From an uncultured bacterium (GTDB lineage Bacteria; Omnitrophota; Gorgyraeia; Duberdicusellales; CBEUCJ01): a stretch of DNA of 64,000 bases. Under the pieces are notes generated by a model. The model saw only the letters and a program-made list of their open reading frames with translations. It was not told the DNA's origin and did no database searches. The position numbers were made by a program, and so were the translations under genes. Shown piece after piece: positions 20,815 through 47,957 of the stretch (its first letter is position 1; each line of letters starts with the position of its first letter). The stretch is taken from NCBI GenBank assembly GCA_965541615.1, contig CBEUCJ010000001.1, positions 195,754-259,753 on the forward strand. The letters are read 5' to 3'.

Positions 20815-23800
20815 ATGGCAGACTTCCCCAAATACCTTTCTATTCAAACCACATCTTTATGTAATGCTTCTTGTGTATTTTGTCCCTATAAAGATATAAA
20901 AGATTTATTTCCTAAAAAAATTATGGATATGAGACTATTTAAAAAAATAATAAATGAATGTTCAAACTATAAAGTTGAAAGAATAATCCTTTACATGAAT
21001 AATGAGCCTTTAACTGATCCTTACATAATAGAAAGGGTCAACTATGCAAAAGAAAAAGTACCTTGGGCTTGTGTTCATATTTTAACTAATGGTGTATTAC
21101 TTACTGATGAAATGGCAGAAAAAATTTTAAATTCAAAATTAGATTGGATTGGAATAAGTTTTCATGGGATAAGAAAAGAGACGGTTGAGAAAACAATGGG
21201 TATAAATTTTGATATAACATTTGAAAGGATTAATAAATTTATAGAAAAGGCAAAAAAAATAAAGAATATAAAGGAATACATAATGATAACTTTCCTAAAG
21301 CATAAATATTTAACAGATGAAGAAAAAGAAGAAGCGATTAAATACTGGAGAAATAAAGGAATAGAAAGAATTAGTTTTTTTGAAGCTCCTATCTCACGTG
21401 CAGGGAATGTAAAAAGTCTAAATAAGATATATCATAAAGAAAAAATTGTTGGTTGTAAATCTATATGGGCAGAAGAAATGATTCATATTACTGAGGATGG
21501 AAAAGTAATTTTATGTTGTATGGATTGGAGAAGGGAAGTTATTTTAGGAGATTTGAATAAAGAAAGTATATACAGTGTGTGGAATGGAAGAAGAAAAGAA
21601 ATTTGGCAGATGATTAAAGGATATAAAGAGATGCCAGAGGATTTTTTATGTAGAAGATGTGAAGAAGCAATAACAGAAAAAGAAAAAAAATCAGTTTTAC
21701 TTGTGAACTTACCTCCTTGGGGTGTAGATACTCCTTATTTAGGTATTGCTTCTCTTGCTAGTTATCTTAATAAGAACAGAATACCTACTCAAATATTCGA
21801 TTTTAATATAGAGTTGTATAATCTCGTTCCTTCAGAATATAAGTATCTATGGGGTATGAACTATAGTAGTTGGTGGAAAAATAAGTTTAGTTTTATTAAA
21901 GATAAAATAGGTCCTCATATTTATGCTTTAATGGAAAGATTGTTATACTTTCCTCACAAAATAATAGGATTTTCTCTTCCTTCAAATTGGTCATACACAA
22001 TTTTAGAAGAAATAGTAAGAAAAATAAAAGAGAGGGATAAAAATAAAATAATAATATTAGGAGGGATTTCTATATCAATAAAAGAACAAAGATTTGAGAT
22101 TTTAAAACGAATAGAAAAATATATAGATTATTGCATCATTGGTGAAGGAGAAAAGGCTTTGTATGAGATAGTAAAGAACATTTTTGAGAAAAAAGAAGAT
22201 GATATAAAAAAGATTAAAGGAGTATTAACAAAGGATACTTTTTTTAGTGATGGAGAAAAAGCAGAGATAGAATCACTCGATGAATTACCTTTTCCTTCCT
22301 TTGAGGAGTTTGATCTTGAAAAATACACTGCAAAAGGTAGCCTTCCTATAGAATTTTCTCGAGGGTGTATAGGTAATTGTTCATTTTGCGATTTTAAAAT
22401 AATTTCTCCTCGATTTAAGAAAAAGACAGCTTCTTACATTTTTAATCAGATTAAATATTATATAGAAAAGTATGGCATAAACCATCTTACAGTTGTAGAT
22501 CCTGCACTAAATTCAGATATAAAAACTTTAGAAGAATTATGTGATTTGCTAATCAAATACAAGGTTAAAATTAAGTTATCTGGTTTAGCTATTCCCCGAA
22601 AAGAGATGAGTTATGAATTACTCTGTAAGATGAAAAAAGCAGGCTTTTACCGTTTAGAATATGGAGTTGAAAGTGGCTCTGATAAAATTCTTAAGTTAAT
22701 GAGGAAAATGTTTACTTCTGAGATAGCTGAGAAAGTGATTAAAGATACTCATAGAGCAGGAATAGAAGTACATTTATATTTTATAGTAGGTTTTCCTGGA
22801 GAAGGAGAAAAAGAATTTAATGAAACAAAAGAATTTTTAAAAAGAGTAGCTTTATACGTAACAGCAATAAAATCAATTAATCCTCTTTATGTAATGGCAG
22901 GTTCAGAAATATTTTATCATCCAGAGAAATATGGGATTATTATACCTGATAATGAAGGTGATAGAAAATGGTATACAGTGAATTTAGATAACACTTTTGA
23001 TATAAGAAGAGAAAGAGTATTGGAGTTAAAAAGATGGGCAAAAGAACTAAATATAAAATTTTCAGAAGATGCTGAATCTTTGGAATTCACCTTAAAATTT
23101 GCTGAAAAGAAAAAAGAAAATGAAATTATAAGTATAAAAAAGAAAACGTTACCTGAGGAAGTTAAAAAATGTGATTTTCTTTTAATTAATCTTCCTCCTT
23201 GGTCTCAAGAAAATCCTCATATAGGTGTTGGTTATTTATGCAGTTATTTAAGAAAAAAAAGATTCAAACCTAAAGTTTTAGATTTAAATAAAAAATTTTA
23301 TCTTAACCATCAAGATTTTAAAATGCTCTGGCATGTGGAGAATAAAAATTTCTGGTCAAATGAATCTACATTTCCTTTGATTTTGAAAATTTTCAAAGAG
23401 GATATAGATAAAGCAATAGAGGAAGTTATTTCTTACGATTGTGAAGTTTTGGGGTTTTCTGTAGTAGATCCAAAAGAAAAACTTACCATTGAATTTATAA
23501 AAAGAATAAAAGAGAAAGCACCAGACAAAAAAATAATATTGGGAGGTCCTGCCACCTCTACTTATGAGCAGAGAAAGATTTTTTTAGATAATGTGGATAA
23601 AGATATAACTGCTTTTGTTATTGGAGAAGGTGAAGTCGCTCTCTTTTCTTTGTTGAGAAATATTTTAGAAAAGAGGGAGATAGATAACATTGAAGGATGT
23701 ATGGTTAAAAAAGATGGTAAGTGGAAATATAAAGAAAGAAAATTTTTTATTCCTCTTGATGAATTACCTTTTCCTACCTATGAAGAATTTGATATGAGTC

Positions 23801-24810
23801 TATATGGAAGATCTATTTTAGTTGAATGGTCAAGAGGTTGTATTGGAAGATGCGCTTTTTGTAAAAACTACAAACTTTTCCCTGTATTTAGAGTAAGATC
23901 TCCTGAGAATATATTAAAAGAATTAAGATTTCATAAAGAGAAATATAAAATTGAAGAATTCACAGTAGTAGATAATATATTAAATGGAGATTTAAATAAT
24001 TTAAGAAAAGTTTGTGAAAAAATAATAAAGGAAAATTTAAAAATAAGATGGACAGGCCAAATTGCTCCTTCAAAAAATATGGATTTTGAATTTTTTAAAT
24101 TATTAAAAAAAACAGGTTGTTTTAAATTACAAATTGGGTTTGAATCTGCTTCAAATAAGGTATTAAAAAAAATGAGAAAAACTTTTACTCAAGAAATATC
24201 TGAAAAGAATATAAGATATGCAAAGAAAGCAGGAATAGAAACAGAAATTTTTGTAATGGTAGGTTTTCCTGGTGAAGATGAAAAAGAATTTAAAAAGACT
24301 TATAATTTTATAAAAAGAAACTCAAAATATATTGATACTATAAAATCTATAAATACTCTGCATTTAATAGCAGGAACAGATGTATATGAGAAAAGAGAAG
24401 ATTTTGGAATAAAACCTTTACCTAAAGAAAATTGGCATTATTTATGGGAGACTTACGATGGAAATAATTATAAAATAAGAAAAAGAAGAGCAGAAATACT
24501 TTTAGATTTAGCTTACAATTTAGGAATAAAAGTTATGGAGACGAATATAACTGAAGGTAAAGAAAGTATATTTAAAGTTATAAAAGAAAAACCTCTTTGT
24601 GAAAAAATAGAATTGTTAAGGTCTTCCATTAATAATTTACAAGAACTCCCTCAAAAAAGAATAAGGAAGATAAGAAAAAAAAGGAGCTTTTTGAAGTATT
24701 TTATTTTGTTTTCACTTTCTTTTTACATATTTTTTTATATTGTATATTTTTGGATGTATATGATTTTAAAGAAAAAGATTATTTGGGGAGGAAAGTTGAA
24801 TAAGAAATAA
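20815..24810 (+). CDS. 1331-aa membrane-anchored protein with three radical SAM modules (1 twitch/SPASM-like + 2 tandem B12-binding class B modules)
   Basis: Module 1: IQTTSLCNASCVFCPYK...IVGCKSIW...ILCCMDW...FLCRRCEE. Module 2: NLPPWGVDTPYLGIASLASYL (B12-binding) + EFSRGCIGNCSFCDFK. Module 3: NLPPWSQENPHIGVGYLCSYL + EWSRGCIGRCAFCKNYK. Modules 2 and 3 are diverged tandem duplicates (DELPFPSFEEFD / DELPFPTYEEFD). C-terminal hydrophobic helix FILFSLSFYIFFYIVYFWMYMIL. Confidence 0.7.
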   Translation: MADFPKYLSIQTTSLCNASCVFCPYKDIKDLFPKKIMDMRLFKKIINECSNYKVERIILYMNNEPLTDPYIIERVNYAKEKVPWACVHILTNGVLLTDEMAEKILNSKLDWIGISFHGIRKETVEKTMGINFDITFERINKFIEKAKKIKNIKEYIMITFLKHKYLTDEEKEEAIKYWRNKGIERISFFEAPISRAGNVKSLNKIYHKEKIVGCKSIWAEEMIHITEDGKVILCCMDWRREVILGDLNKESIYSVWNGRRKEIWQMIKGYKEMPEDFLCRRCEEAITEKEKKSVLLVNLPPWGVDTPYLGIASLASYLNKNRIPTQIFDFNIELYNLVPSEYKYLWGMNYSSWWKNKFSFIKDKIGPHIYALMERLLYFPHKIIGFSLPSNWSYTILEEIVRKIKERDKNKIIILGGISISIKEQRFEILKRIEKYIDYCIIGEGEKALYEIVKNIFEKKEDDIKKIKGVLTKDTFFSDGEKAEIESLDELPFPSFEEFDLEKYTAKGSLPIEFSRGCIGNCSFCDFKIISPRFKKKTASYIFNQIKYYIEKYGINHLTVVDPALNSDIKTLEELCDLLIKYKVKIKLSGLAIPRKEMSYELLCKMKKAGFYRLEYGVESGSDKILKLMRKMFTSEIAEKVIKDTHRAGIEVHLYFIVGFPGEGEKEFNETKEFLKRVALYVTAIKSINPLYVMAGSEIFYHPEKYGIIIPDNEGDRKWYTVNLDNTFDIRRERVLELKRWAKELNIKFSEDAESLEFTLKFAEKKKENEIISIKKKTLPEEVKKCDFLLINLPPWSQENPHIGVGYLCSYLRKKRFKPKVLDLNKKFYLNHQDFKMLWHVENKNFWSNESTFPLILKIFKEDIDKAIEEVISYDCEVLGFSVVDPKEKLTIEFIKRIKEKAPDKKIILGGPATSTYEQRKIFLDNVDKDITAFVIGEGEVALFSLLRNILEKREIDNIEGCMVKKDGKWKYKERKFFIPLDELPFPTYEEFDMSLYGRSILVEWSRGCIGRCAFCKNYKLFPVFRVRSPENILKELRFHKEKYKIEEFTVVDNILNGDLNNLRKVCEKIIKENLKIRWTGQIAPSKNMDFEFFKLLKKTGCFKLQIGFESASNKVLKKMRKTFTQEISEKNIRYAKKAGIETEIFVMVGFPGEDEKEFKKTYNFIKRNSKYIDTIKSINTLHLIAGTDVYEKREDFGIKPLPKENWHYLWETYDGNNYKIRKRRAEILLDLAYNLGIKVMETNITEGKESIFKVIKEKPLCEKIELLRSSINNLQELPQKRIRKIRKKRSFLKYFILFSLSFYIFFYIVYFWMYMILKKKIIWGGKLNKK

Positions 24811-26560: not shown

Positions 26561-27727
26561 ATGAACGTTCTGATGATACATCCTCATGATTTGTTCGCAT
26601 GTGCAGAACCCTGGACAATAAGAATTATAAATATTGCAAAAGAGTTTGTAAAATTAAATCATAAAGTAAGACTTTGTTATTTTCCTTTATCTTTTGGAGA
26701 AAAAAATACGAAAAAAATTGATTCTATAGAAATTTTTCCCTTGGAAAGGAGACCAACTCCAATTTCATTTTTGAGAAATGTAAAAAAATTGATAGAATTA
26801 GCAAAATGGGCAGATGTAATTCATTTTCAAAAATGTCATCATTATTCAGCTATACCTGCAGTTTTAGCTGCTTATATTACAGGAAAACCCCTTCATTATG
26901 ATTGGGATGATTGGGAGGAAAAAATATGGTATGAGTCTTGTGGTAAAAGTTTACATTCAAGATTTATAGGTGTTTCTTTTAAAATTTTAGAAAGATGGCT
27001 TCCTGTTTTGGCTGATTCAGTTTCATGTTCTAGTAATTATCTAAAAAAAATAGCTTATAAATATGGAGTAAAAAAAGAATATATTTTTGATAGCCCTGTG
27101 GGGGCAGATTTAGAAAAATTTAGACCTGATTTAAATGGAAGCTGGGTTAGAGAAAAATACGATATAAAGGAACATTTAGTTTTATATATAGGGCAACTTC
27201 ATGGTGCTCAATATGTGGATTTATTCATAAAAGCAGCAAATATAGTTTTACATGAAAAACCAAATGCTACTTTTATGATTGTAGGAGAAGGATTTTTAAG
27301 GAGAAAATTAGAAAGATTAGTACAGGATTTAGGAATAGAAAATAAAGTTATTTTTACAGGAGCTGTTCCTCATAAAGAGATTCCTTATTATATTTGTGCA
27401 GCTGATATTTGTGTAGCTTCTTTTAAAAAAACAGAAGTGACTCAATGCAAATCTCCGTTAAAAATTGTAGAATATTTAGCTTGTGGAAAGCCAGTTGTAG
27501 CAAGTTTAGTAGGAGAAGTAAGAAGTATGGTGGGAGGAGTAGGTGTGTTAGTAGAACCTGGTAATCATTTGAATTTAGCAAAAGCTATAATCTTTCTTCT
27601 TGAAAATGAAGAGATAAGAAAAGAATTAGGCAAAAGAGCAAGAAAAAGAGTAGAATACAAATACAACTGGAATTTTACTGCTAAATCGATACTTTCTGCT
27701 TATGAAAAGATTTTAAATGACCCATGA
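26561..27727 (+). CDS. glycosyltransferase family 4 (GT-B)
   Basis: LVLYIGQLHGAQYVDLFIKAA...FMIVGEGFLRRKLERL...IFTGAVPHKEIPYYICAADICV...EYLACGKPVVAS is the canonical GT4 C-terminal domain. Confidence 0.65.
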   Translation: MNVLMIHPHDLFACAEPWTIRIINIAKEFVKLNHKVRLCYFPLSFGEKNTKKIDSIEIFPLERRPTPISFLRNVKKLIELAKWADVIHFQKCHHYSAIPAVLAAYITGKPLHYDWDDWEEKIWYESCGKSLHSRFIGVSFKILERWLPVLADSVSCSSNYLKKIAYKYGVKKEYIFDSPVGADLEKFRPDLNGSWVREKYDIKEHLVLYIGQLHGAQYVDLFIKAANIVLHEKPNATFMIVGEGFLRRKLERLVQDLGIENKVIFTGAVPHKEIPYYICAADICVASFKKTEVTQCKSPLKIVEYLACGKPVVASLVGEVRSMVGGVGVLVEPGNHLNLAKAIIFLLENEEIRKELGKRARKRVEYKYNWNFTAKSILSAYEKILNDP

Positions 27728-28170
27728 AAAGAGCTAACTATAAGTTACTGGGAGAGATTTTAGTAGAAGAGGGATTTATTAAAAAAGAGGATTTAGAAAT
27801 AGCGTTGGAAAGAAAAAAAAGAGAAAAGAAAATGTTAGGAGAAATTCTTTTAGAAATGGGTAGCTTAAAAGAAGAGGAGTTAGTTCAAGTTTTAAGTCTT
27901 CAATTTGGTTCTTCTTATTTACCTTTGGATAATTATGAGATAGATTTTCAAATAGTAAAAAGAATCCCTCAGGATATAATAGAAAAATATAAGATAATTC
28001 CTATCGATATTATTGGGAATATTTTAACGATAGTTACATTCGATCCTTCAAATTTAGAGTTAGAAGAATTGGAGAACGTATTAGGGTTTGATATACAGGT
28101 TTTTATATGTACAAAAAGTGAATTTGAGAGGGCTTTAAAGAAAATTAAACAGAATGTTTCTTCAGGATAA
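27724..28170 (+). CDS. stand-alone T2SSE_N (GspE N-terminal) domain protein with tandem MshEN-like c-di-GMP-binding motifs
   Basis: KLLGEILVEEGFIKKEDLEIALERKK + KMLGEILLEMGSLKEEELVQVLSLQ match the paired 24-residue MshEN motif. This is followed by the T2SSE_N fold (IIPIDIIGNILTIVTFDPSN). Confidence 0.5.
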   Translation: MKRANYKLLGEILVEEGFIKKEDLEIALERKKREKKMLGEILLEMGSLKEEELVQVLSLQFGSSYLPLDNYEIDFQIVKRIPQDIIEKYKIIPIDIIGNILTIVTFDPSNLELEELENVLGFDIQVFICTKSEFERALKKIKQNVSSG

Positions 28171-29851
28171 ACTTAAAGAAATATTAATTGAAAAAAAACT
28201 CATTGCTGAAGATGATCTTAAAAATGCTTTGAAGCTTCAAAAAGAAAAAGGAGGATTACTTTCAGATATATTAATAAAAATGGGTTTAATAGATGAAAAA
28301 AGATTAACTTTGGCTCTAAGCCAAAGTTTAAACATCCCTGTCTTAAGATTGAGTAAATTTAAAATAGATAAAGAGGTAATAAAACTTATGCCTTTGGAAT
28401 TGATAAAAAAATACCAGATTTTACCTTTAGCAAAAATAGGAAAAATACTTACTGTAGCTTTAGGAGACCCTCTAAATATTTTTGCTATAGATGATTTAAA
28501 AGCTGTAACTGGTTTACATATAAATCCTATTTTAGCTTTACCTTCAGAAGTAAAAGAAAATATAAATAAACTTTTTGCTCAAGATACAGAAAGAACTTTA
28601 GAAGAGATTTTAAAGAAAACTGAGAAACCAAATTTAGAGTTTATCCCTGTTCAGAAAGAGGAGTTGAGTACTCAAGAAGTTGAAGAAGCTCCTATCGTTA
28701 AGTACACTTATACTTTACTTAAAAAAGCCATAGAGAAAAGAGCTTCAGATATCTTAATAGAGCCTTTAGAGAAGAAAGTGAAGATAAGATTTAGAATAGA
28801 TGGTGTTTTACGTGAAGAGGAGTTAATCCCTAAGAATGTGCATAATTTTATTGTTACAAGGATAAAAGTAATGTCTAAATTAAATGTAGCTGAACACAGA
28901 CTTCCTCAAGATGGTAGGTTTAAGATAAAAATCAATAACAGAGAGATAGATTTTAGAGTTTCTATTCTCCCTTCAAGTTTTGGAGAAAAGATAGCTTTAA
29001 GAGTTTTAGATAAAAGTATGGGGTTGTTAGATTTAGATAGTTTAGGTTTTGAAAAAGATAATTTGGAAAAGATTAAAAAATCTGCTTCTATGCCCCATGG
29101 AATGATTTTGGTTTGTGGTCCTTCAGGTTCAGGTAAGACCACCACACTTTATGCTATCCTTAAATTCGTTGATTCTCCTGAGAAAAATTTGATTACAGTT
29201 GAGGATCCTGTAGAATATCAGATAAAAACAGCTACACAGATAAATGTAAATCCTGAAGTAGGTTTAACTTTTGCTTCTGCTTTGAGATCTATTTTAAGAC
29301 AAGACCCAGATATCATAATGGTTGGAGAGATTAGAGATCCAGAGACTTTAGATATAGCTATAAAAGCTGCTTTAACAGGACATTTGTTGTTATCTACAGT
29401 TCATACTACCACAGCTTCAGGAGCAATAGTTAGGTTATTAAATATGGGAGCAGAAAATTATCTTTTAACTTCATGTTTAATATGTGTGATAGCTCAGAGG
29501 TTAGTTAGAAAACTATGTGAGCATTGTAAAGAAGAGAAGTTAATAAAAAGAGAAATAATTGAGAGATTAAAAATGCCTTGTAAATCTTGTGAAGAAAATG
29601 TAAGAGTATTTGTTCCTAAAGGATGCGATAAATGTTTTAACACAGGTTATTTAGGAAGGATTGGAATATGTGAGGTTTTATCTATGAGTAATGAAATCAG
29701 AGAATTAATTTTAAAAAATGCACAGGAATCTGAGATTAGAAATAAAGCTAGATCAGAAGGGATGAGGACTCTAAGAGAAGATGGATTTGTTAAGGTAATC
29801 AAAGGGATTACTTCTTTAGATGAAGTTTTAAGGATAACAGCTCCAGAGTAG
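28154..29851 (+). CDS. pilB: type IV pilus assembly ATPase PilB/GspE family
   Basis: Walker A LVCGPSGSGKTTTLYA; VGEIRDPETLDIAIKAALTGHLLLSTVHT; tetracysteine CEHCK...CKSCE...GCDKC; N-terminal T2SSE_N domain with weaker MshEN-like motifs (KLKEILIEKKLIAEDDLKNALKLQ...LLSDILIKMGLIDEKRLTLALSQ). Confidence 0.8.
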   Translation: MFLQDKLKEILIEKKLIAEDDLKNALKLQKEKGGLLSDILIKMGLIDEKRLTLALSQSLNIPVLRLSKFKIDKEVIKLMPLELIKKYQILPLAKIGKILTVALGDPLNIFAIDDLKAVTGLHINPILALPSEVKENINKLFAQDTERTLEEILKKTEKPNLEFIPVQKEELSTQEVEEAPIVKYTYTLLKKAIEKRASDILIEPLEKKVKIRFRIDGVLREEELIPKNVHNFIVTRIKVMSKLNVAEHRLPQDGRFKIKINNREIDFRVSILPSSFGEKIALRVLDKSMGLLDLDSLGFEKDNLEKIKKSASMPHGMILVCGPSGSGKTTTLYAILKFVDSPEKNLITVEDPVEYQIKTATQINVNPEVGLTFASALRSILRQDPDIIMVGEIRDPETLDIAIKAALTGHLLLSTVHTTTASGAIVRLLNMGAENYLLTSCLICVIAQRLVRKLCEHCKEEKLIKREIIERLKMPCKSCEENVRVFVPKGCDKCFNTGYLGRIGICEVLSMSNEIRELILKNAQESEIRNKARSEGMRTLREDGFVKVIKGITSLDEVLRITAPE

Positions 29852-29855
29852 TTTT

Positions 29856-31544
29856 ATGAGACTTAAAGAGAAAATACTTGTTAAGTTAAAGAATAAAGGG
29901 ATTTCAGAAAATGAGATAAAAGAACTCTTAGCTATAAAAGAGTTTTCTGAATTTAAAGAAAGATTGTTTTCTGAAAAATTACTTACAAAAGAAGAATTTT
30001 TAAAGATACTTTCTGAAGAATTTCAGATTCCTTTGATAAATTTAAAAGATTTAAAGATTAGCAAGGATTTAAAAAAACTTTTACCTAAAGATACAGCCTT
30101 AAAGTATAAAATAGCACCTGTTGAAAGTAGAGAGAATATTTTAAAAATAGCTATCTCAGATCCTTCTGATATTTTTGTCAAACAGGATTTAGAAATCTTA
30201 GTTAATAAGAAAATAGAGTATGTTTTAGCTTCAGAAGAAGAGATTAAGATTCTTCAGGAAAGATTATATGGACTTGAAAAAGATACTGTAGATATCTTAA
30301 AAGAAGTAAAAGATTTAGGTGAGCCTGAACTTACAGAAGTTGAAGAGCTGAAAGTAGATTCAGTTATAAGAGAAGCAGAAAGACCACCCATAGTAAAAAT
30401 AGTAGATTTACTCCTTTATGAAGGTTTAAGAAGGAGAGCTTCAGATATTCATATAGAACCTAAAGAAGATTGCTTGAAAGTAAGATACAGAATAGATGGC
30501 ATCTTACAAGAAGCTTACAACATTCCTAAAAAAAATCAAAATGCTATTATTGCCAGATTGAAGATAATGTCCAGATTAGATATGACTGAAACAAGGATTC
30601 CTCAAGATGGAAGATTTAAGGTAAAATTTGAAGGTAGAGAAATAGACTTTAGGGTTTCAAGTCTTCCTTCAATTTTTGGAGAAAAATTTGTTTTAAGGAT
30701 TTTAGACAAAGAGAATCTTTTTGTAGGATTAGATAAATTAGGATTTTCACCTGAACCCTTAGAGATATTTAAAGAAGCTATTAAAAGACCTTTTGGGATG
30801 ATTTTGGTAACAGGTCCTACAGGTTCTGGAAAGTCTACGACACTCTATTCTATAATTCAACAGTTAAACACTCCTGATAGAAATATAATAACCATTGAAG
30901 ACCCTGTAGAGTATCAAATAGAAGGAATAACTCAAATTCAAGTAAGACCTGAAATAGGATTAGATTTTGCTCAAGGATTAAGAGCTATATTACGCCAAAG
31001 TCCAGATATTATCTTAGTAGGTGAGATTAGAGATACTGAGACTGCTGACATAGCTATAAAAGCTGCTTTGACAGGGACTTTGATTTTATCTACATTACAC
31101 ACAAATGATGCTTGTGGAGCTATTACGAGATTAGAGAACATGGGAATAGAACCTTTCTTGATAGCTTCTTCATTGATATTGGTTACTGCTCAAAGATTAT
31201 GTAGAAAAATTTGTGATAAATGCAAATATAGTTATAATGTTTCAGAAGTAGTTTTAAAAAGATTGGGATTAGAGCATTTGAAAGATAAAAAATTTTATTA
31301 TGGAAAAGGATGCCAAAATTGTAATAATACAGGTTACAAAGGTAGGACCCCTATTTTAGAATGTTTGTATATAGATGATGCAGTAAAAGAGTTAATAATA
31401 AAGTGTGCTTCTAGTGATCAAATTAAAAATTTTGTGATAAAAAACAAAGGATTTAAGACTTTGAGAGACGATGCTCTTAAGAAATGTTTAGAAGGAGTTA
31501 TAAGTTTAGAAGAGATGGTAAGAGTAACTGCTGAGGAGGAGTAA
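29856..31544 (+). CDS. second PilB/GspE-type assembly ATPase (paralog)
   Basis: LVTGPTGSGKSTTLYS; VGEIRDTETADIAIKAALTGTLILSTLHT; CDKCK...GCQNCNNTGYKGR; 562 aa with an N-terminal T2SSE_N domain, so assembly-type, not PilT. Confidence 0.75.
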   Translation: MRLKEKILVKLKNKGISENEIKELLAIKEFSEFKERLFSEKLLTKEEFLKILSEEFQIPLINLKDLKISKDLKKLLPKDTALKYKIAPVESRENILKIAISDPSDIFVKQDLEILVNKKIEYVLASEEEIKILQERLYGLEKDTVDILKEVKDLGEPELTEVEELKVDSVIREAERPPIVKIVDLLLYEGLRRRASDIHIEPKEDCLKVRYRIDGILQEAYNIPKKNQNAIIARLKIMSRLDMTETRIPQDGRFKVKFEGREIDFRVSSLPSIFGEKFVLRILDKENLFVGLDKLGFSPEPLEIFKEAIKRPFGMILVTGPTGSGKSTTLYSIIQQLNTPDRNIITIEDPVEYQIEGITQIQVRPEIGLDFAQGLRAILRQSPDIILVGEIRDTETADIAIKAALTGTLILSTLHTNDACGAITRLENMGIEPFLIASSLILVTAQRLCRKICDKCKYSYNVSEVVLKRLGLEHLKDKKFYYGKGCQNCNNTGYKGRTPILECLYIDDAVKELIIKCASSDQIKNFVIKNKGFKTLRDDALKKCLEGVISLEEMVRVTAEEE

Positions 31545-31551
31545 TTTTTAG

Positions 31552-32757
31552 ATGCCTTATTATAAGTACATAGCTGAGAATTCTGAAGGCAAAAAGATAA
31601 AAGGAGTAATTCAAGCTTCAGAGGAATCTGAAGTAGTTCAAAAGTTAAGAGAAGAAGGTTTAGTCCTTTTAGATTTAAAAGAGACTAAAAAAGGCATAGT
31701 TAAAAATATAGTCAGAGGGAAAATAAAATTAGAGGATTTAGCTTCTTTTTCAAGACAGTTAGCTACCATACTTCAAAGTGGGATCCCTCTGGTAGAAGGT
31801 TTAGGAATACTCTCTCAGCAAGTAACAAATCCTGCTTTTAAGAAGATAATCTCTAATATTCAAAAAGAGATTAAAGAGGGATTGGCTTTTTCAGATTCTT
31901 TAAAAAAATACCCAAATGTGTTTTCAGAATTATACATAAATATGGTAAAAGCTGGTGAAGCTTCAGGTTTATTAGATGAAATTTTAGATAGGTTAGCTAG
32001 TTACTTAGAAAGAACAGTTCAACTCCAGCATAAGATAAAATCTAGTTTAATGTATCCAATTGTAGTAGTTTTAATGGCTATAGGAATAACTGCTTTTTTG
32101 ATGGTAAAAGTAATCCCTACTTTTAAAGAAATCTTTGAGATGTTAGAGGCAAAATTACCTTTACCTACCAGGATTTTAATAAAAATAAGTGAATTTTTTA
32201 AAAATAGCTTTATTTTTATCTTAATGGGATTAGGGATAGGTGTTTTTATTTTCTTGCAGGGTTTGAAAAATCCTAAATTTAAAAAGATAGTAGATGCAAA
32301 TGTTTTAAGAATTCCTGTATTTGGTGATTTATGTAAGAAGATAGCTATAGCTAAATTTTCAAGGACTTTAGCTACTTTGATTAAAAGTGGTGTCTCTATA
32401 TTACAGTCTTTAGAGATAGTAGCTAAGACTTCAGGAAATAAGATTATTGAAGAAGCTGTATTAAAAGCAAGAGAGAGTATAAAGGAAGGTGAGTTTTTGG
32501 CTGCTCCTTTAGAAAAAACTCAAATTTTTCCTCCATTAGTAGTTAGGATGATAGCTGTAGGTGAAAAGACAGGAAAGTTAGAATTTATGTTGTCTAAAAT
32601 TGCTGATTTTTATGATGAAGAAGTTTCAACTACTGTATCTAATTTAATGAGTTTGATAGAACCACTTATTATTGGTTTTTTAGGAATAGTAATTGGAGGA
32701 ATAGTTGTTTCATTATTCTTACCTATATTAAAAATTACACAGTTAGTAGGAAGATAA
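31552..32757 (+). CDS. pilC: type IV pilus platform protein PilC/GspF
   Basis: Two T2SSF repeats (SFSRQLATILQSGIPLVEGL / KFSRTLATLIKSGVSILQSL); three TM segments. Confidence 0.8.
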   Translation: MPYYKYIAENSEGKKIKGVIQASEESEVVQKLREEGLVLLDLKETKKGIVKNIVRGKIKLEDLASFSRQLATILQSGIPLVEGLGILSQQVTNPAFKKIISNIQKEIKEGLAFSDSLKKYPNVFSELYINMVKAGEASGLLDEILDRLASYLERTVQLQHKIKSSLMYPIVVVLMAIGITAFLMVKVIPTFKEIFEMLEAKLPLPTRILIKISEFFKNSFIFILMGLGIGVFIFLQGLKNPKFKKIVDANVLRIPVFGDLCKKIAIAKFSRTLATLIKSGVSILQSLEIVAKTSGNKIIEEAVLKARESIKEGEFLAAPLEKTQIFPPLVVRMIAVGEKTGKLEFMLSKIADFYDEEVSTTVSNLMSLIEPLIIGFLGIVIGGIVVSLFLPILKITQLVGR

Positions 32758-32857: not shown

Positions 32858-33304
32858 ATGAAGAAAGGTTTTACTTTAGTAGAAATTATGATTGTAGTCG
32901 CTATCATTGCTTTATTAGCAGCTATAGCTATCCCTAACTTACTACGTGCAAGATTGAATGCTAATGAATCTGCTGCAATAGCAGCTTTACAGACTATTTC
33001 TTCTGCAGCTCAAAGTTATAGAGCTGTAAATCCTACTTTTCCTGCTAATTTGAGTGCGTTGGGTAATGCAACTCCTCCTTACATTGATAGTGTCTTAGCA
33101 AGTGGGTCAAAGCAAGGATATAACTTTACTCTTTCAGGTAGCACAAACACTTTTTTGGCTATAGCTTATCCTCAAATTCATGGAAAAACAGGTAGACGTT
33201 CTTTCTGTGTAGATGAGAGTGGAGTTATAAGATACACAGACCCAGGTTCAGCAGTTACTAGTCCTTCTGCTTGTGATAGCAGTTTTGGGAATCCAATAGA
33301 ATAA
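32858..33304 (+). CDS. pilA: type IV pilin (major pilin, PilA-like)
   Basis: MKKGFTLVEIMIVVAIIALLAAIAIP: class III signal with G/FTLVE prepilin cleavage-methylation motif; C-terminal Cys pair. Confidence 0.8.
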   Translation: MKKGFTLVEIMIVVAIIALLAAIAIPNLLRARLNANESAAIAALQTISSAAQSYRAVNPTFPANLSALGNATPPYIDSVLASGSKQGYNFTLSGSTNTFLAIAYPQIHGKTGRRSFCVDESGVIRYTDPGSAVTSPSACDSSFGNPIE

Positions 33305-33334
33305 TAATTTTTTTGTTTTTATGTTAATTAAAAA

Positions 33335-33364
33335 GGGGGCTTTAAAAAGCCCCCTTAATTTTTT
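33335..33364 (+). terminator. rho-independent terminator after the pilin gene
   Basis: GGGGGCTTT-aa-AAAGCCCCC perfect 9-bp stem followed by TTAATTTTTT. Confidence 0.7.
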
Positions 33365-33369
33365 AAAGT

Positions 33370-35421
33370 TTGAAAAGATATATTTTTTTAATTATTCTAA
33401 TAGGCTTTTTCTTATATTTAAAAGTTATATTCTTTGATTTTGTTTGGGATGATAAAGCTTTAGTTATAAATAATCCTTTAATAAGACCCCCTTTAAGACT
33501 CAAAGAAATATTTACCAATACAATATTCTATCCAAAAGTATTAAAGACTCCTTTTTGGAGACCTCTTCAAACTTTAAGTTACTTTTTAGATTATAAAATA
33601 GCAGGTCTTAATTCTAAAATTTTCCATTTAACTAATATTATTCTTCATATTTTAAACTCCATTTTAGTATTTTTAATCATCCAAAATATTTTTTCTAAAA
33701 AATTTATATCTTTTTTTACATCTATATTTTTTCTTATTCATCCTTTAAATTTAGAATCTGTGTGTTATGTATCAGGAAGAGCAGATTTATTGATGGGATT
33801 CTTTATATTAACAGCTTTTTATTTTTTTCTATTTTATCAAAACACTAATAAATTACTCTTTCTTTTACTTTCTTTAATATTTTTTTCTTTAGCTTTACTT
33901 TCAAAGGAACCCAGTTTAATATTTCCCATTTGGATTTTTTTATATTTAAAATTTATAAAAAAAGATGTTTTTAAAAAAGCTTTTAAAAAAACTATATTCT
34001 TTTTTTTAATCTCTTTTTTTTATCTAATTTTAAGGATCTTTGTTTTAAAGATTCCTTCCTCTATAACTCTTCAAAAATTCTATCCTCCTTTAGTAAGATT
34101 TCTAACTCTGCCTCAAGTTTTTTTTCAATACTTAATTGTTCTCTTTTTTCCAATACATCTTCATATGGCAAGGAATGTGATGATTTTTGAGAAGTTTTGC
34201 TTTTTTTTATTATTTCAATGGTTGATAATGCTGTTTATTTTTCTTTTTCTTTTTAAAATTTCTCAAAAATCTTTTTATGCAAAGTTTTCTCTTATTTTCT
34301 TTTTTACTTTTTTATTTCCTAATCTACCACCTTTTCCTCAGAATGCTTTTTTAGCAGAACATTTTTTATATTTAGCTCAGGTAGGTATATGGGTTATGCT
34401 TTCAGTTTTTTTATATTCTAAGAAGTTAAGAAGTATTTTGTTTTTCTATCTTTTGTTTATATTTTTTATTAACTTTAAAACCTCTGATTATTGGAAAGAT
34501 AATAAAGTGCTTTATGAAAGGATACTTAAACTTTCTCCTAATAGTTTTGCTGTATGTAATAATTTAGGGACAGTGTATTTAGAAGAGGGAGATTTTAAAA
34601 AAGCTGATTTTTTATTTAAAAGAGCTTTAGAGATTAATCCTGGTTTTTTAGAAGCAAAACTCAATTTAGCTAGGATTTATTATCTTAAAGGAGATTTAGA
34701 GAAAGCTATAAGTATGACTAAAAAAATAATAAAATCAGAACCTTCTTATTACTTAGCTTACCAGTATTTAGGTGCTTTTTATGCAAAAAAGAAAAATTTT
34801 GAAAAAGCTGAAAAAGCATTTAAAAAAGCTTTAGAGTTAAATCCTAAGAATCCTTTAATTTGGTATGATCTTTACCTTTTTTATAAAGAAAAAGGAGATA
34901 TTAAGAATGCATATTCTGTTTTAAAGAAAGCAGGCAGTTTAAATAAAGAGTATTTTGGTGAGTTTTATTTTTTAAAAAGCAAAGAGTTTTTAGAAAAAGG
35001 AAATTTTAAAAAAGCTTTAAATTATGTAAATAAAGCTTTAAGAATAAATAGATTAAAATGTGAGTATTTTAATTTGAAAGGTGTAATATTTAAAAATATG
35101 GGTAGGTTTAAAGAAGCAATTATTTTTTATAAGAAAGCTTTAAGATTAAATCCTAAGAGTCCACAGGTTTATAATAATTTAGGAGTACTCTTTGCTCTTT
35201 TAAAAAGGGATAAGGAAGCAGAATTCTATTTTAAAAAGTCTTTAGAATTTGATAAAGATAACTTTGAAGCAAATATGAATTTGGGTTTTTTTTATTTAAA
35301 AAAAGGAGAAAAAGCTAAAGCAAGATATTATTTTTTAAAAGCAAAAAAAATAAATCCTCAATATTTTTCAAAATTTAAAGATTATTTAAAAGACAACTCA
35401 ATTATTGATGTAGATTTCTGA
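33370..35421 (+). CDS. TMTC-like GT-C membrane protein (DUF1736-type N-terminal domain) with C-terminal TPR repeats
   Basis: N-terminal FDFVWDDKALVINNP...FWRPLQTLSYFLDYKIAGLNSKIFHLTNIILHILNSILVFL matches the W-DD / RPL / HL-N--LH motif set of TMTC/PMT_2-like proteins. At least 8 TPR units follow (NNLGTVYLEEGDFKKA...). Confidence 0.5.
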   Translation: MKRYIFLIILIGFFLYLKVIFFDFVWDDKALVINNPLIRPPLRLKEIFTNTIFYPKVLKTPFWRPLQTLSYFLDYKIAGLNSKIFHLTNIILHILNSILVFLIIQNIFSKKFISFFTSIFFLIHPLNLESVCYVSGRADLLMGFFILTAFYFFLFYQNTNKLLFLLLSLIFFSLALLSKEPSLIFPIWIFLYLKFIKKDVFKKAFKKTIFFFLISFFYLILRIFVLKIPSSITLQKFYPPLVRFLTLPQVFFQYLIVLFFPIHLHMARNVMIFEKFCFFLLFQWLIMLFIFLFLFKISQKSFYAKFSLIFFFTFLFPNLPPFPQNAFLAEHFLYLAQVGIWVMLSVFLYSKKLRSILFFYLLFIFFINFKTSDYWKDNKVLYERILKLSPNSFAVCNNLGTVYLEEGDFKKADFLFKRALEINPGFLEAKLNLARIYYLKGDLEKAISMTKKIIKSEPSYYLAYQYLGAFYAKKKNFEKAEKAFKKALELNPKNPLIWYDLYLFYKEKGDIKNAYSVLKKAGSLNKEYFGEFYFLKSKEFLEKGNFKKALNYVNKALRINRLKCEYFNLKGVIFKNMGRFKEAIIFYKKALRLNPKSPQVYNNLGVLFALLKRDKEAEFYFKKSLEFDKDNFEANMNLGFFYLKKGEKAKARYYFLKAKKINPQYFSKFKDYLKDNSIIDVDF

Positions 35422-35441: not shown

Positions 35442-36359
35442 ATGTTAAAGAAACCATATTCTAAAGAAAAGATAGTTTGCTTAAATATAGGAGAAGATTC
35501 AATTAAAGGAATAGAAATTGAGACATTACCTCCTCTAAAAGACCTCCCTTTTAGGTTTATTCTTGATAAGTTTTATATCAAAAATTTTAAAGAACTTACT
35601 TGTGAAGTTTTAAAAGAATTTTTTCTAAAAGCAAATTTTTCTACCCAAAAAGTAAGAGTATGTTTAGAAAGGATTCATACTCTTGCAAGATACATTGAGC
35701 TTCCTAAAATGGAGCTTAAAGAATTCAAAAACGCTCTTAAGTTTGAAGTAGAAAAGTGCATTCCTTTTTCTATAGAAGAAGTGTACTTTGACGGAGATAT
35801 TTTAGAAGAGTATGAGCAAAAAATGAGGGTGATAGTAGCTGTTTGCAAGAAAAAATTAATAGATTCTATTTTAGATCTTTTTAATAAAATAAATATTTTT
35901 GTTGAGTTAATAAATTTAGAGAGTTTAGCTTTGATTAATTTTTTTAATTATTTTTTCAAAGTCAACACAGAAACAGGTTTACTCAATATTGGAGATAAGG
36001 TTAGTTCCTTTACTATTTTGAGAGCTCAGATTCCTTTTTTAACAAGAGTCATAGCTTTGGGTAGATACCATTTTTTAAAAGAAGATAATTTTAATTCTTT
36101 TGAGAATCTGCTTAGAGAAATTAAACTTACCTTAGATTATTTTGAGACTCAAACTTCAAGTTCAGTAAAAAAGATGTTTATAACTGGAGAAGGAGTATAT
36201 ATTAGCAAAATAACAGATTTCTTTACAGAAAATCTAAATATACCTGCAGAAAAGCTTAGTATTGAAAACAAAATAGATTTTAAAGATCCTTCTACAAAAT
36301 CAAATTTTTTAAAAGAAGAAAATACATTCCATGCGTGTTTGGGGTTAGGGGTATCATGA
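35442..36359 (+). CDS. pilM: type IV pilus assembly protein PilM (actin-like)
   Basis: Position upstream of pilNOPQ; size and N-terminal VCLNIGEDSIKGIEIE segment. Confidence 0.55.
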   Translation: MLKKPYSKEKIVCLNIGEDSIKGIEIETLPPLKDLPFRFILDKFYIKNFKELTCEVLKEFFLKANFSTQKVRVCLERIHTLARYIELPKMELKEFKNALKFEVEKCIPFSIEEVYFDGDILEEYEQKMRVIVAVCKKKLIDSILDLFNKINIFVELINLESLALINFFNYFFKVNTETGLLNIGDKVSSFTILRAQIPFLTRVIALGRYHFLKEDNFNSFENLLREIKLTLDYFETQTSSSVKKMFITGEGVYISKITDFFTENLNIPAEKLSIENKIDFKDPSTKSNFLKEENTFHACLGLGVS

Positions 36360-36925
36360 TAATAAAAATAAATCTTTTACCTCCTCATGTAAAAGATTCT
36401 CAAAGAAAAATTAAAAAAATTAAATTAAATTTTAAGACTTTAGTTAAAGTGCTTTTAATTTTTATAATAATAGAAATTTCTTTAGGAGTCTTAAAAGGAG
36501 CAATTAAATTTAAGATAAAAAAGATAAATAAAGAAAGGAAAAGATTAGCTCCTTTATTAGGACAAATTCAGTCTATAAACAGAGAGTTGAGAAAAATAGA
36601 AGAGAAAATCTCTATTTTAAATAGTGTAAAGAAAAGGAATTTTTGTATATCTCTTTTTTTTGATAAGCTTTTAAAGATTTTGCCCAAAACCATTTGGTTT
36701 TCAAAAGTAATTATTACACAAGAAAATATATTTATAGAAGGCAGTTCAGTAAGTTTGGGTAAATTTGATCAGACTTACTATGTGAATGAGCTGGTAGAGA
36801 GAATAAGAGATTGTTTTAAAGATATTGTTCAAGATGTAGAATTGAAATCTTTAAGAAAGAGAAACATTTCAAAAACTGAAATTGCAGATTTTTCTATATG
36901 GATAAGATTAAAATCAGAAAATTAA
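36335..36925 (+). CDS. pilN: PilN-like fimbrial assembly protein
   Basis: INLLPPHVK N-terminus, single TM, coiled coil. Confidence 0.55.
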   Translation: MFGVRGIMIIKINLLPPHVKDSQRKIKKIKLNFKTLVKVLLIFIIIEISLGVLKGAIKFKIKKINKERKRLAPLLGQIQSINRELRKIEEKISILNSVKKRNFCISLFFDKLLKILPKTIWFSKVIITQENIFIEGSSVSLGKFDQTYYVNELVERIRDCFKDIVQDVELKSLRKRNISKTEIADFSIWIRLKSEN

Positions 36926-37446
36926 TATACTTTCTTCTTATAGGAATATTAGGAATAAATATCTTCTTTTTATTTCCTTTTCAGGTGATTACATTCTTTT
37001 CTATAAATAAGAAGTTAATAAAGCTTTCAAGAAAATTAAAGGAAGAAAAACTCCAAGTCTCCAGACTCACCAAATACAAAGAAAGTTTAAAATTGCAAAA
37101 AGAAAAATATCAAAAAGTTTTAAACAGTAGTATCAGAGAAGAAGAGTTCTCTAAAATTATTAGTATAATCTCACAAAAAGCTAAAAAATTCGGGGTTAAA
37201 CTCTGTGATTTAGAACCTTTGGAGATCTCTGAAAAGAATAGTTTTGATGGAGGAGAATGTTATCTTAAGCCTATTTCTGTTACTGCCTACAGTACTTTCA
37301 AATCATTTATGAGATTCTTAAGGTATATAGAAAAATATGAAAAGTTTATAAAGGTTAAAAATTTAGAGATCCTCTCAACCTACTCTGGAGAGTATCCTAT
37401 CAGGTTTTTATTAGAGGTTTTTGTGATAAAATTTAAAAAAATATGA
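36898..37446 (+). CDS. pilO: PilO-like protein
   Basis: Single N-terminal TM + coiled coil; synteny. Confidence 0.45.
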   Translation: MDKIKIRKLIYFLLIGILGINIFFLFPFQVITFFSINKKLIKLSRKLKEEKLQVSRLTKYKESLKLQKEKYQKVLNSSIREEEFSKIISIISQKAKKFGVKLCDLEPLEISEKNSFDGGECYLKPISVTAYSTFKSFMRFLRYIEKYEKFIKVKNLEILSTYSGEYPIRFLLEVFVIKFKKI

Positions 37447-37781
37447 AGATACTTTTTTATCTTCTTATTTTTTTATTTTTTCAGAATTTTACTTACGCAG
37501 ATAATTCTGAAAGAGACCCTTTTCTTCCTTTAGTATCTCCTGAAGGTAAACTGATAAACATTTCTTACAAAATCTCTTTTTCAGAGATTAAATTGGAGGC
37601 TATCATTTATTCGAAAGATAAACCTTTAGCTATAATAAATGGTAATCTTTATAAAGAAGGTGAAAAGATTGGAGAATACAAGATTGTTAAGATAAATGAA
37701 GATAAGGTAGTTTTAAAAAAAGGAAAAGAAGAATTTAATTTGATGTTGTATGAAGAAAAGTTTCAAAACCAAGGAAGGTGA
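37443..37781 (+). CDS. PilP-like small periplasmic protein
   Basis: Signal peptide; 112 aa; position between pilO and pilQ. Confidence 0.35.
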   Translation: MKILFYLLIFLFFQNFTYADNSERDPFLPLVSPEGKLINISYKISFSEIKLEAIIYSKDKPLAIINGNLYKEGEKIGEYKIVKINEDKVVLKKGKEEFNLMLYEEKFQNQGR

Positions 37782-37787
37782 TTAAAG

Positions 37788-39092
37788 ATGAAGAAGATCA
37801 GTTTTTTATTGGTTTTTTTATTTTTGATTTTTTGTACTTATTCTCAAAATAAACCAGATACAAAAAAGAAAGATTCAGAAAATGAAGTTAGAATAACTTT
37901 AAATCTCAAAGATACAGATATTAAAACTTTCTTACAAGCTATAGCTGAAGCAGCCAAAGTCAATATAATCCCAGGTCCTGAAGTAGACGCAAAAGTTACA
38001 GCTCGTTTAAAAAACATTCCTTGGAAAAAAGCTTTAAGCGTAGTCTTAAAAGCTTATGGATTTGAATTTGAAGAGATATCACCTGGAGTAATCTATGTTA
38101 CAACTTTAGAGAAGATGGCTGAGAAAAGAAAACTAGAAAGAGAACTTAAAACTCAAGAACCTTTAGTTACAAAGACCTTTTCTTTAAACTATGCTAAGGT
38201 AGATGAGATTTCAGAGCCTATAAAACAGTTATTAACTCCTAGAGGAAAGATTACTTACGATAAAAGGACTAATACTCTTATAATTACAGATACAAAGAGC
38301 AATTTAGAGAGTTTAAAGAATCTGATCAAAAATTTAGATAGAAAAACAAAACAGATTTTAATAGAAGTGAGAATAGAAGAAGCAGATGTCAATCTAACAG
38401 AAAAATTGGGTATAAATTGGTCCTTAACAAATGCTAGTATGAATTTACCTAAAGTTGAACATAAATGGCCATTTGGTGGTGGTACAAAGTTTGAAAAAAG
38501 ATATATAAAAGGTCAATGGCCTACCCCTACACTTACTCATGGAATCATAGACCTTTCTAATGTAAGTGCAATTTTAGATGCTTTAGAAACAGAAGGACAT
38601 ACAAAGTTAATAGCCCATCCTAAAGTAGTCACTTTAGAAAATGAACCTGCCAAAATAAAAGTAGTTACAGAATGGCCAATCCCTAATTATTCTTATAATT
38701 CAGAGACAGGACAATGGGAGATAACTGGTTTTGAATATAAAGACATAGGTGTAGTCTTAGAAGTTACTCCTCAAATAAATGAAGAAAATATGGTTACTCT
38801 GAAAGTTAAACCCGAAGTTACAGAAGAATCTGGTGAAAAAATAGACTTTACAGGAGGAGCTCAATTGCCTATCACTTTAAAAAGAGAAGCTGAATTAAAA
38901 GTTAGTATTAAAGATGGACAGACTTTAGTTATAGGTGGTCTTTTAAAGTCTTCTAAAAATATTACAAAAAGTAAATTTCCTTTATTAAGCAAAGTGCCTT
39001 TATTAGGATGGTTTTTTTCTCATAAATATGAGAGCAAAAAAGATGTAGACTTATTAATATTCATTACTCCCCACATATTAAAAGAATCATAA
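37788..39092 (+). CDS. pilQ: type IV pilus secretin PilQ
   Basis: Secretin C-domain GQTLVIGGLLKSSKNITKSKFPLLSKVPLLGWFF...DLLIFITPHIL; N-terminal signal peptide. Confidence 0.8.
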   Translation: MKKISFLLVFLFLIFCTYSQNKPDTKKKDSENEVRITLNLKDTDIKTFLQAIAEAAKVNIIPGPEVDAKVTARLKNIPWKKALSVVLKAYGFEFEEISPGVIYVTTLEKMAEKRKLERELKTQEPLVTKTFSLNYAKVDEISEPIKQLLTPRGKITYDKRTNTLIITDTKSNLESLKNLIKNLDRKTKQILIEVRIEEADVNLTEKLGINWSLTNASMNLPKVEHKWPFGGGTKFEKRYIKGQWPTPTLTHGIIDLSNVSAILDALETEGHTKLIAHPKVVTLENEPAKIKVVTEWPIPNYSYNSETGQWEITGFEYKDIGVVLEVTPQINEENMVTLKVKPEVTEESGEKIDFTGGAQLPITLKREAELKVSIKDGQTLVIGGLLKSSKNITKSKFPLLSKVPLLGWFFSHKYESKKDVDLLIFITPHILKES

Positions 39093-47764: not shown

Positions 47765-47851
47765 TGCCGGAGGAGGGATTTGAACCCTCACCCCCTTTGA
47801 AAGGGGAGCAGATTTTGAGTCTGCCGCGTCTGCCAGTTCCGCCACTCCGGC
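47765..47851 (-). tRNA. tRNA-Leu (anticodon CAA)
   Basis: Manual fold: acceptor GCCGGAG/CTCCGGC; anticodon stem GCAGA/TCTGC with loop CTCAAAA; long variable arm CCCCTTTCAAAGGGG; T-arm GAGGG-TTCAAAT-CCCTC; no encoded CCA. Confidence 0.8.
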
Positions 47852-47884
47852 TTCTTAAAGATTAAGGAATCTTTTGAAGACAAG

Positions 47885-47957
47885 TGGAGCTGGAGGGACT
47901 TGAACCCTCGACCCCCAGACTGCCAGCCTGGTGCTCTCCCAGCTGAGCTACAGCCCC
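47885..47957 (-). tRNA. tRNA-Ala (anticodon GGC)
   Basis: Manual fold: GGGGCTG acceptor with G3:U70; D-arm GCTC-AGCTGGGA-GAGC; anticodon loop CTGGCAG; T-arm GAGGG-TTCAAGT-CCCTC; discriminator A; no encoded CCA. Confidence 0.8.

Follow-up and report, generated by a model that had tools for sequence, protein, structure and literature searches.

A Small Gene at the Head of a Type IVa Pilus Cluster

A 64 kb stretch of DNA from an uncultured Omnitrophota bacterium (64,000 nucleotides of contig CBEUCJ010000001.1), called the window here, was analysed around its genes for type IV pilus assembly. A small gene at 27724..28170 (+ strand, ATG start) encodes a stand-alone MshEN/GSPII protein of 148 amino acids (aa), designated S, which was characterized from its open reading frame (ORF), Pfam and Protein Data Bank (PDB) matches, an AlphaFold2 (AF2) model and Foldseek. 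The N-terminal four-helix subdomain of S carries motif I, a spacer and motif II, and the C-terminal subdomain (aa ~61–147) is T2SSE_N1-like. The genes that follow on the same strand encode two MshEN–T2SSE ATPases, PilB-1 (28154..29851; 565 aa, with an intact Walker A, GPSGSGKT) and PilB-2 (29856..31544; 562 aa, with an intact Walker A, GPTGSGKS), the PilC platform protein (T2SSF in Pfam; 31552..32757) and a type IV pilin (N_methyl motif in Pfam; 32858..33304). A PMT_2/TPR protein comes next, and the series PilM, a gene in the PilN position without a Pfam match, PilO, a small T2SSB-like protein and the PilQ secretin occupies 35442..39092 (+). A complete type IVa pilus cluster thus begins with S. 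The stop codon of S lies 17 nt inside PilB-1, whose frame is +1 relative to that of S. The initial annotation had given this feature the range 27724–28420; the start was right, whereas the end took in the first 89 residues of PilB-1, the ORF stopping at 28170. Taken as a whole, the evidence tips modestly towards S being a receptor for cyclic di-GMP (c-di-GMP) that acts in trans on the pilus motor.

Domain Identity and Fold

The proposal of a free-standing MshEN domain, with a near-complete motif pair and inside a type IV pilus operon, was borne out by homology and fold. The closest PDB sequences in a phmmer search were Thermus thermophilus PilF (E = 2.6e-34, aa 7–140), Geobacter PilB (1e-20) and MshE (1e-11). 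Pfam family PF05157 matched aa 61–143 only (4.5e-14; 52.6 bits vs a cut-off of 23.1), and the Pfam model is known to miss the first three helices of MshEN (Wang et al., 2016, PMC5013675). The alignment to PF05157, which had been suggested as a check, was run and could not test the motifs with this coverage; alignments to 5HTL and PilF and a comparison of structures were used instead. The AF2 model of S, built with 75 family sequences, had a pLDDT of 90.8 and a pTM of 0.82, with helices at residues 9–15, 21–33, 38–45 and 50–61 and strands at 91–97, 100–105 and 123–128. The best Foldseek match of this model was c-di-GMP-bound MshE (5HTL; E = 8e-10, TM 0.80/0.85, rmsd 2.1 Å over 137 columns), followed by c-di-GMP-bound PilF GSPII-B and then by PilF GSPII-A, the Xanthomonas citri PilB N-domain with PilZ (7LKM) and XpsE-N. 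S has no PF00437 match and ends at aa 148, and is thus not an ATPase, though some sources name its relatives 'PilB'. It was confirmed that S is a complete free-standing MshEN/GSPII domain.

The c-di-GMP Motif Pair of S

Two consecutive 24-residue motifs had been claimed for the 148-aa ORF, and both are present: LLGEILVEEGFIKKEDLEIALERK (motif I, aa 8–31; 27745..27816, +) and MLGEILLEMGSLKEEELVQVLSLQ (motif II, aa 37–60; 27832..27903, +), joined by the spacer KREKK (aa 32–36), whose five residues equal the spacing in Vibrio cholerae MshE (VcMshE). In the phmmer alignment to 5HTL, 9 of the 12 key residues of S and VcMshE are identical; the MshE/S pairs are R9/L8, L10/L9, G11/G10, L25/L24, L29/L28 and Q32/K31 in motif I, and R38/M37, L39/L38, G40/G39, L54/L53, L58/L57 and Q61/Q60 in motif II. 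A loss of the conserved residues, which had been named as the point to look for, was seen at one of these places. All six residues of the Leu clusters (L9, L24, L28, L38, L53 and L57, at motif positions 2, 17 and 21) are Leu, both position-3 glycines (G10 and G39) are present and Q60 is kept at the end of motif II, whereas the Gln at the end of motif I is replaced by K31.

The fit to the strict published consensus, as the initial annotation had quoted it, did not hold. S has no Arg at either first position, the last residue of motif I is K and position 11 of motif II is S. Moreover, the relaxed pattern of Wang et al. found 0 matches in S, the first positions failing [RKPN]. The two Arg positions are hydrophobic in S, a state compatible with, and even favouring, high affinity (PMC11731258). 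The GSPII-B domain of PilF, with Lys and Leu in place of the two arginines, binds c-di-GMP with a KD of 6 nM; the K167L variant reached 2 nM with the native L196, and binding became 4- to 25-fold weaker when Arg was put back (Neissner et al., PMC11731258). The consensus was accordingly widened by these authors to (R/K/L), and a hydrophobic first residue was proposed as a predictor of very high affinity (PMC11731258). S departs from this extended consensus only in the Q-to-K change and in having M for L as one of its first residues: L8 lies within (R/K/L), and M37 is not listed there but is large and hydrophobic like Leu. Both L8 and M37 would belong to the hydrophobic kind that predicts high affinity. 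A Lys at the last position of motif I is allowed in the relaxed pattern of Wang et al. (PMC5013675). In quantitative terms, Q32A costs VcMshEN 9-fold (PMC5013675), and Q190E in PilF-B caused a 158-fold loss with binding retained (PMC11731258).

A very relaxed tandem pattern gave 1 match in the six-frame translation of the window and 0 in 200 shuffles. Judged at the level of sequence, the motif pair is a matter of homology and not of chance, because the whole domain is homologous and the loose pattern was absent from the shuffles.

Degenerate N-Domains of PilB-1 and PilB-2

A weaker motif pair had also been described at the start of PilB-1. A pair is indeed present, in the degenerate form KLK...Q and LLS...S, but weaker binding is probably the wrong description, as K8 and S37 stand in place of the two motif glycines and the second, final Gln has become S58. 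In PilB-2, no recognisable c-di-GMP motif was found; both Gly positions are replaced and the spacer is shortened. The Walker A and the other ATPase boxes of both proteins are intact on direct reading. In VcMshEN, G11L left no detectable binding and G40I weakened binding 72-fold (Wang et al., 2016, PMC5013675). PilB-1 and PilB-2 are predicted to be active motors unable to bind c-di-GMP in the canonical way, because they lack the very glycines whose replacement abolished or severely cut binding in VcMshEN. With both ATPases as predicted non-binders, the earlier picture, in which the ATPase and the extra protein both sense c-di-GMP, would give way to one in which sensing is delegated to the extra protein. 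In a comparison with the closest relative, the N-domain of PilB2 had 55% identity and that of PilB1 83%; the PilB2 N-domain evolves much faster.

Conservation Across Omnitrophota

The SecA encoded in the window is 60–65% identical to proteins named Candidatus Omnitrophota/Omnitrophica, which assigns the window to this phylum. The first k-mer search for homologues returned 2 relatives of S and the first genome scan none, and a family profile was needed. An exhaustive HMMER search then gave 14,613 MshEN relatives, many of the best being proteins of 145–180 aa. The profile search gave about 120 single-domain proteins which, where named, are called 'hypothetical protein [Candidatus Omnitrophota]' or are mislabelled 'PilB'. 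The family signature QYG[FYI]P[YF]LPL was found by genome scan in at least 588 species-representative genomes, nearly all titled Omnitrophota; in the S of the window, the QYGFPYLPL form has diverged to QFGSSYLPL.

At 90 loci (numbered with the prefix L), ORFs were called and classified with hidden Markov models (HMMs) built for this analysis, and the order S–PilB1–PilB2 was counted in 83; five loci without an S–PilB pair were contig ends or of a type with a second S. The order was conserved in 83 of 83, with S as a single MshEN protein of ~145–160 aa directly 5' of the tandem pilB genes. The common arrangement over these loci was [GGDEF-domain]–[PilT]–S–PilB1–PilB2–[REC-HD-GYP or second S]–PilC. 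In 8 gene-called loci, the gap between S and PilB1 ranged from −17 to +22 nt, with overlaps of 17, 11 and 4 nt and gaps of 2 to 22 nt. The closest relative, L001, has an S that is 66% identical and likewise 148 aa long, a SecA that is 88% identical and the same 17-nt overlap of S and PilB1; an HD-GYP gene stands between its PilB2 and PilC.

The motif residues were distributed very unevenly over the three proteins when their N-domains were aligned to the S profile. Both glycines were kept in 82 of 83 stand-alone S proteins (S1), and the full set G, G, Q, Q in 77 of 83. Among the PilB1 N-domains, both glycines were kept in 0 of 81 and neither in 76, and the full set in 0 of 81; the corresponding values for the PilB2 N-domains were 1 of 68, 57 and 0 of 68. 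The core leucines were conserved in S, PilB1 and PilB2 alike. The fold evidently does not need the Gly and Gln residues and S does, because the leucines are kept in all three classes and Gly/Gln only in S. Such a split is the signature expected if ligand binding has been maintained in S and abandoned in the ATPases. Furthermore, the spacer between the motifs had five residues in 67 of 75 family members, and the first position of motif II, Met in the window, was Leu in 87–94% of the stand-alone family.

A second stand-alone MshEN gene (S2) was observed between PilB2 and PilC at L019, L021, L022, L040, L048, L052, L054, L073 and L083, and also at L008 (6001–6516), L055 (16041–16417) and L057; G, G, Q, Q were kept in 11 of 13. 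At L008, L055 and L057, S2 comes after a protein of 1340–1390 aa with an AGDEF GGDEF domain, for which Pfam also gave AAA_16 and a weak HEAT_2 at L008.

Signalling Genes Near S and Divergence of the Window Copy

The genes around S in the relatives were surveyed for c-di-GMP domains. A GGDEF-domain gene lay within two genes upstream of S in 46 of 70 evaluable loci (a HAMP-GAF-GGDEF gene, for example, at L005:5581–6999 and L009:3483–4919), PilT stood directly upstream of S in 27 of 70, and HD-GYP followed PilB2 in 21 of 69. At least one such neighbour was present at 36 of 54 fully evaluable loci; the window is among the third with none. The REC-HD-GYP proteins kept both catalytic motifs in 21 of 22 cases. 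The flanking GGDEF signatures were degenerate (GDNEF, DDNEF, TSDKF), with the canonical form in 6 of 59 and the RxxD I-site in 7 of 59. The flanking GGDEF genes had been considered as diguanylate cyclases, and this was dropped with the signature degenerate in 53 of 59 and the I-site absent from 52 of 59. As judged from its sequence, the HAMP-GAF-GGDEF protein is probably a non-catalytic sensor or adaptor, resembling degenerate-GGDEF adaptors such as FimX.

Several observations weigh against a c-di-GMP receptor in the window. First, no GGDEF, EAL or HD-GYP gene and no c-di-GMP riboswitch was found in its 64 kb, and the flanking GGDEF proteins of the relatives give no evidence of local c-di-GMP synthesis. 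Second, the S of the window was the most divergent of 82 compared, with a mean identity of 0.40 vs a median of 0.61 in a comparison set that over-represents the core clade, having been picked by the signature that the window lacks. It differed in 14 of 41 highly conserved columns, including Q31K, P64S and Y142K. Third, a match to the motif is insufficient for binding, as the case of PilF GSPII-A indicates: with all six consensus residues restored, this domain still did not bind c-di-GMP, its pocket being blocked by an N-capped extension of helix 1 and by contacts between the subdomains (PMC12002112). Two features hint weakly that S is not blocked in this way. On inspection of the sequence, S is without the T/S/D N-cap and the E/Q/D N3 residue at the place equivalent to that in GSPII-A, and in the AF2 model helix 1 begins at residue 9, with no N-terminal helical extension into the pocket.

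The replacement of the motif-I Gln was related to the neighbourhood of S. The last Q of motif I was K or R in 4 of 18 loci without c-di-GMP-domain neighbours vs 0 of 65 others (Fisher p = 0.0017, uncorrected for phylogeny). At least three apparently independent events account for these changes, which were seen at codon 27814–27816 of the window (K31) and at L021, L045 and L050. With all of this taken into account, binding of c-di-GMP by the core S family is considered likely, and binding by the copy in the window is still rated probable, at a lower level.

Alternative Roles of S

The alternative that survives best, though it is considered unlikely, is that S is a ligand-independent accessory subunit, that is, a structural or assembly factor which, for example, bridges PilB1 and PilB2 to PilM or PilC, with no nucleotide binding left in the lineage of the window. 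The T2SSE_N1-like C-subdomain is a known docking module, as in EpsE-N1:EpsL (2BH1, 4PHT) and XcPilB-N:PilZ (7LKM), all of which were fold matches of S. The high divergence of the window copy with its K for Q at residue 31, the lack of c-di-GMP enzymes encoded nearby in the window and the proof from GSPII-A that a good motif can be non-functional all point the same way. However, G10, G39 and Q60 vary little or not at all within the family and were kept even in the window, while the PilB N-domains hold the same fold without them; this pattern is hard to explain without a ligand.

A change of ligand is less probable still. S could be a receptor for another cyclic dinucleotide (3'3'-cGAMP or another nucleotide) or one of altered specificity or affinity, for example through retuning by the Q-to-K change. 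Binding of cGAMP by VcMshEN is weak (PMC5013675), and the change of the motif-I Q to K/R is confined to loci without c-di-GMP-domain neighbours. Against this, S retains the conserved Gly positions, whose backbone amides provide the guanine-specific contacts, and the window showed no gene for a CD-NTase or another cyclase.

The initial annotation had also offered a c-di-GMP sponge, that is, a buffer without contact to the motor, and this idea gained no specific support. S is a small soluble protein, and high affinity would be predicted from the hydrophobic residues at its first motif positions. The fixed place directly 5' of PilB1, overlapping or nearly abutting it in 83 loci, nevertheless favours a stoichiometric partner of the ATPase, and the strongly conserved C-subdomain would be superfluous, as MshEN_N alone binds. 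A sponge is therefore regarded as very improbable.

Least credible of all is an artefact or severed first domain of a (MshEN)2–T2SSE ATPase, whether by a frameshift in the assembly, by pseudogenisation or by programmed +1 frameshifting into PilB-1: although (MshEN)2-, (MshEN)3- and (MshEN)4-T2SSE ATPases exist, many of the strongest matches in the representative search were multi-MshEN proteins and PilB-1 lies at +1 to S with a 17-nt overlap, the same split recurs over different assemblies, at 83 loci, every PilB1 has a start and a complete N-domain of its own, and S has 148 aa in the 66%-identical relative too. Programmed frameshifting and a split pseudogene were rejected as the S/PilB1 junctions vary in length, leaving no conserved slippery site, while the split is conserved. 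S may have originated by an ancient fission, and the gene would still be functional.

Proposed Mechanism

A soluble c-di-GMP receptor that modulates the ATPases, as first suggested for S, is the best-supported reading. An action on the motor is suggested because the synteny is invariant and a docking role is known for N1-type domains. In this mechanism, S would be co-transcribed with PilB-1 and PilB-2 and would probably be translationally coupled to PilB-1 via the overlapping or closely spaced start and stop codons. PilB-1 and PilB-2 have retained the MshEN fold at their N-termini and lost the ligand-contacting Gly and Gln, and would perform no c-di-GMP sensing of their own. One c-di-GMP may bind in the groove of the four-helix N-subdomain of S. 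Stacking would place the guanines between the Leu clusters (L9/L24/L28/L38/L53/L57) and L8 and M37, the hydrophobic residues at the first motif positions; the backbone amides at G10/E11 and G39/E40 would hydrogen-bond to the guanines, and Q60 and K31 would contact the phosphate–ribose. S would then dock via its T2SSE_N1-like C-subdomain on the motor, with the PilB N-domains, PilM or PilC as candidate partners, and tune pilus extension. Ligand binding by the S of the window, the partner that it contacts and the direction in which it regulates the motor are the predicted parts of this scheme.

More broadly, it is tentatively proposed that Omnitrophota have moved c-di-GMP sensing from the pilus-extension ATPases to a separate, dedicated MshEN protein that serves two ligand-blind PilBs. 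This protein might combine with the degenerate HAMP-GAF-GGDEF and the REC-HD-GYP proteins into a module for local signalling at the motor of the type IV pilus. This broader proposal is held with less confidence than the role of S as a receptor.

Comparison With Known Systems

S shares with MshE of V. cholerae the same two-subdomain fold, the tandem 24-residue motifs and the 5-residue spacer (MshEN, 5HTL; PMC5013675). However, MshEN is fused to the ATPase there, whereas S is a separate polypeptide with Leu and Met for the stacking arginines and Lys for the motif-I Gln. The GSPII-B domain of T. thermophilus PilF (8PDK; PMC11731258) resembles S in doing without arginine, and its motif II opens with Leu, as in most of the S family; unlike motif I of S, it has Gln at both motif ends. 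The three MshEN-type domains of PilF, which are of unequal binding competence, parallel S, PilB1-N and PilB2-N. They lie in one polypeptide in PilF, whereas one domain predicted to be binding-competent and two degenerate ones are spread over three genes here.

The closest functional analogue is the PilB–PilZ–FimX complex of X. citri (7LKM; PMC8389850), in which a ligand-blind PilB N-domain, itself a fold match of S, is regulated in trans by separate proteins, one of them binding c-di-GMP. FimX has a degenerate GGDEF domain, and degenerate GGDEF-domain proteins likewise accompany the system in the Omnitrophota relatives. Xanthomonas differs in that its sensor is the EAL domain of FimX, bridged by PilZ; the candidate sensor S is instead paralogous to the PilB N-domain, and the window showed neither a PilZ nor an EAL gene.

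Pseudomonas aeruginosa PA3740 (MshEN–xT2SSE_N1; Wang et al., 2016, Suppl. Table 4) is, like S, a non-ATPase with an MshEN_N motif pair and an N1-like domain. Binding of c-di-GMP and an effect on swarming have been reported for it (Wang et al., 2016, PMC5013675). It is set apart from S, by its description, in its highly diverged N1 domain and in that no pilB linkage or degenerate ATPase motifs are described. The architecture table of Wang et al. lists many fusions and no bare MshEN protein paired with pilB, PA3740 being the nearest (PMC5013675). Furthermore, no description of the stand-alone MshEN/pilB arrangement of Omnitrophota was found in the literature (open-access papers and preprints). 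The MshEN domain and its ligand are already known; what would be new is a separate sensor beside ligand-blind PilBs.

In NfrB of Escherichia coli (GT2–MshEN), MshEN is associated with a glycosyltransferase, and the start codon of the window S overlaps the stop codon (ATGA) of an upstream GT4 glycosyltransferase gene (26561..27727, +). The domains are fused in NfrB and c-di-GMP controls the glycosyltransferase there, whereas the adjacency in the window is probably incidental. The GT4 neighbour was conserved in none of the relatives and is lineage-specific; a functional link of the NfrB kind was rejected with this neighbour common to no relative.

Other Features of the Window

A strong, perfectly paired hairpin of 10 bp, GC-rich and flanked by T-runs on both strands, was found at 33333–33356, just 3' of the pilin gene. 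This apparent bidirectional intrinsic terminator marks the end of the S–PilB–PilB–PilC–pilin unit. A promoter scan was uninformative (49 sites vs 40.8 expected). The PMT_2/TPR protein encoded directly after the pilin (33370–35421) is a membrane protein of 683 aa whose N-terminal region is of the PMT_2 type (ArnT/PMT-like glycosyltransferase) and which has many TPR repeats; it is a possible candidate for a pilin glycosylation enzyme. A TPR protein of similar size stands at the same position at L001 and L009.

The part of the window upstream of S (1–27727) holds a big glycan/modification cluster with GT9 and GT4 glycosyltransferases, an ABC-2 transporter pair, a PMT_2 protein and several very large radical-SAM proteins. 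A protein of 1412 aa encoded at 14555–18793 has three radical-SAM and three SPASM modules, and CxxxCxxC motifs were seen by eye in one of 1331 aa encoded at 20815–24810. Elsewhere, the window has competence genes of the ComEA-like (HHH_3) and ComEC types, together with a PilT-like retraction ATPase (51385–53119 and 58567–59649). Two adjacent tRNA genes on the − strand (47765–47957) were the sole Rfam matches in the window.

Implications

Only three c-di-GMP receptor domains, MshEN among them, are known to be widespread, and work on MshEN has centred nearly exclusively on its cis-acting form at the N-terminus of PilB, MshE or GspE ATPases. If S acts as proposed, it would be a detachable second-messenger sensor for an ATPase of the secretion superfamily, and regulation of the motor would be modular and shared between paralogous ATPases. 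The arrangement offers a natural experiment on the mechanical role of the MshEN domain. For annotation, hundreds of proteins now named 'hypothetical' or 'PilB' become candidate c-di-GMP receptors, and their cognate PilBs predicted non-binders. The Omnitrophota are largely uncultured, possibly predatory or host-dependent nanobacteria, in which type IV pili are thought to be important for attachment to host or prey. If the proposed role is true, S would provide the first functional handle on pilus control in this phylum and a concrete, testable entry point.

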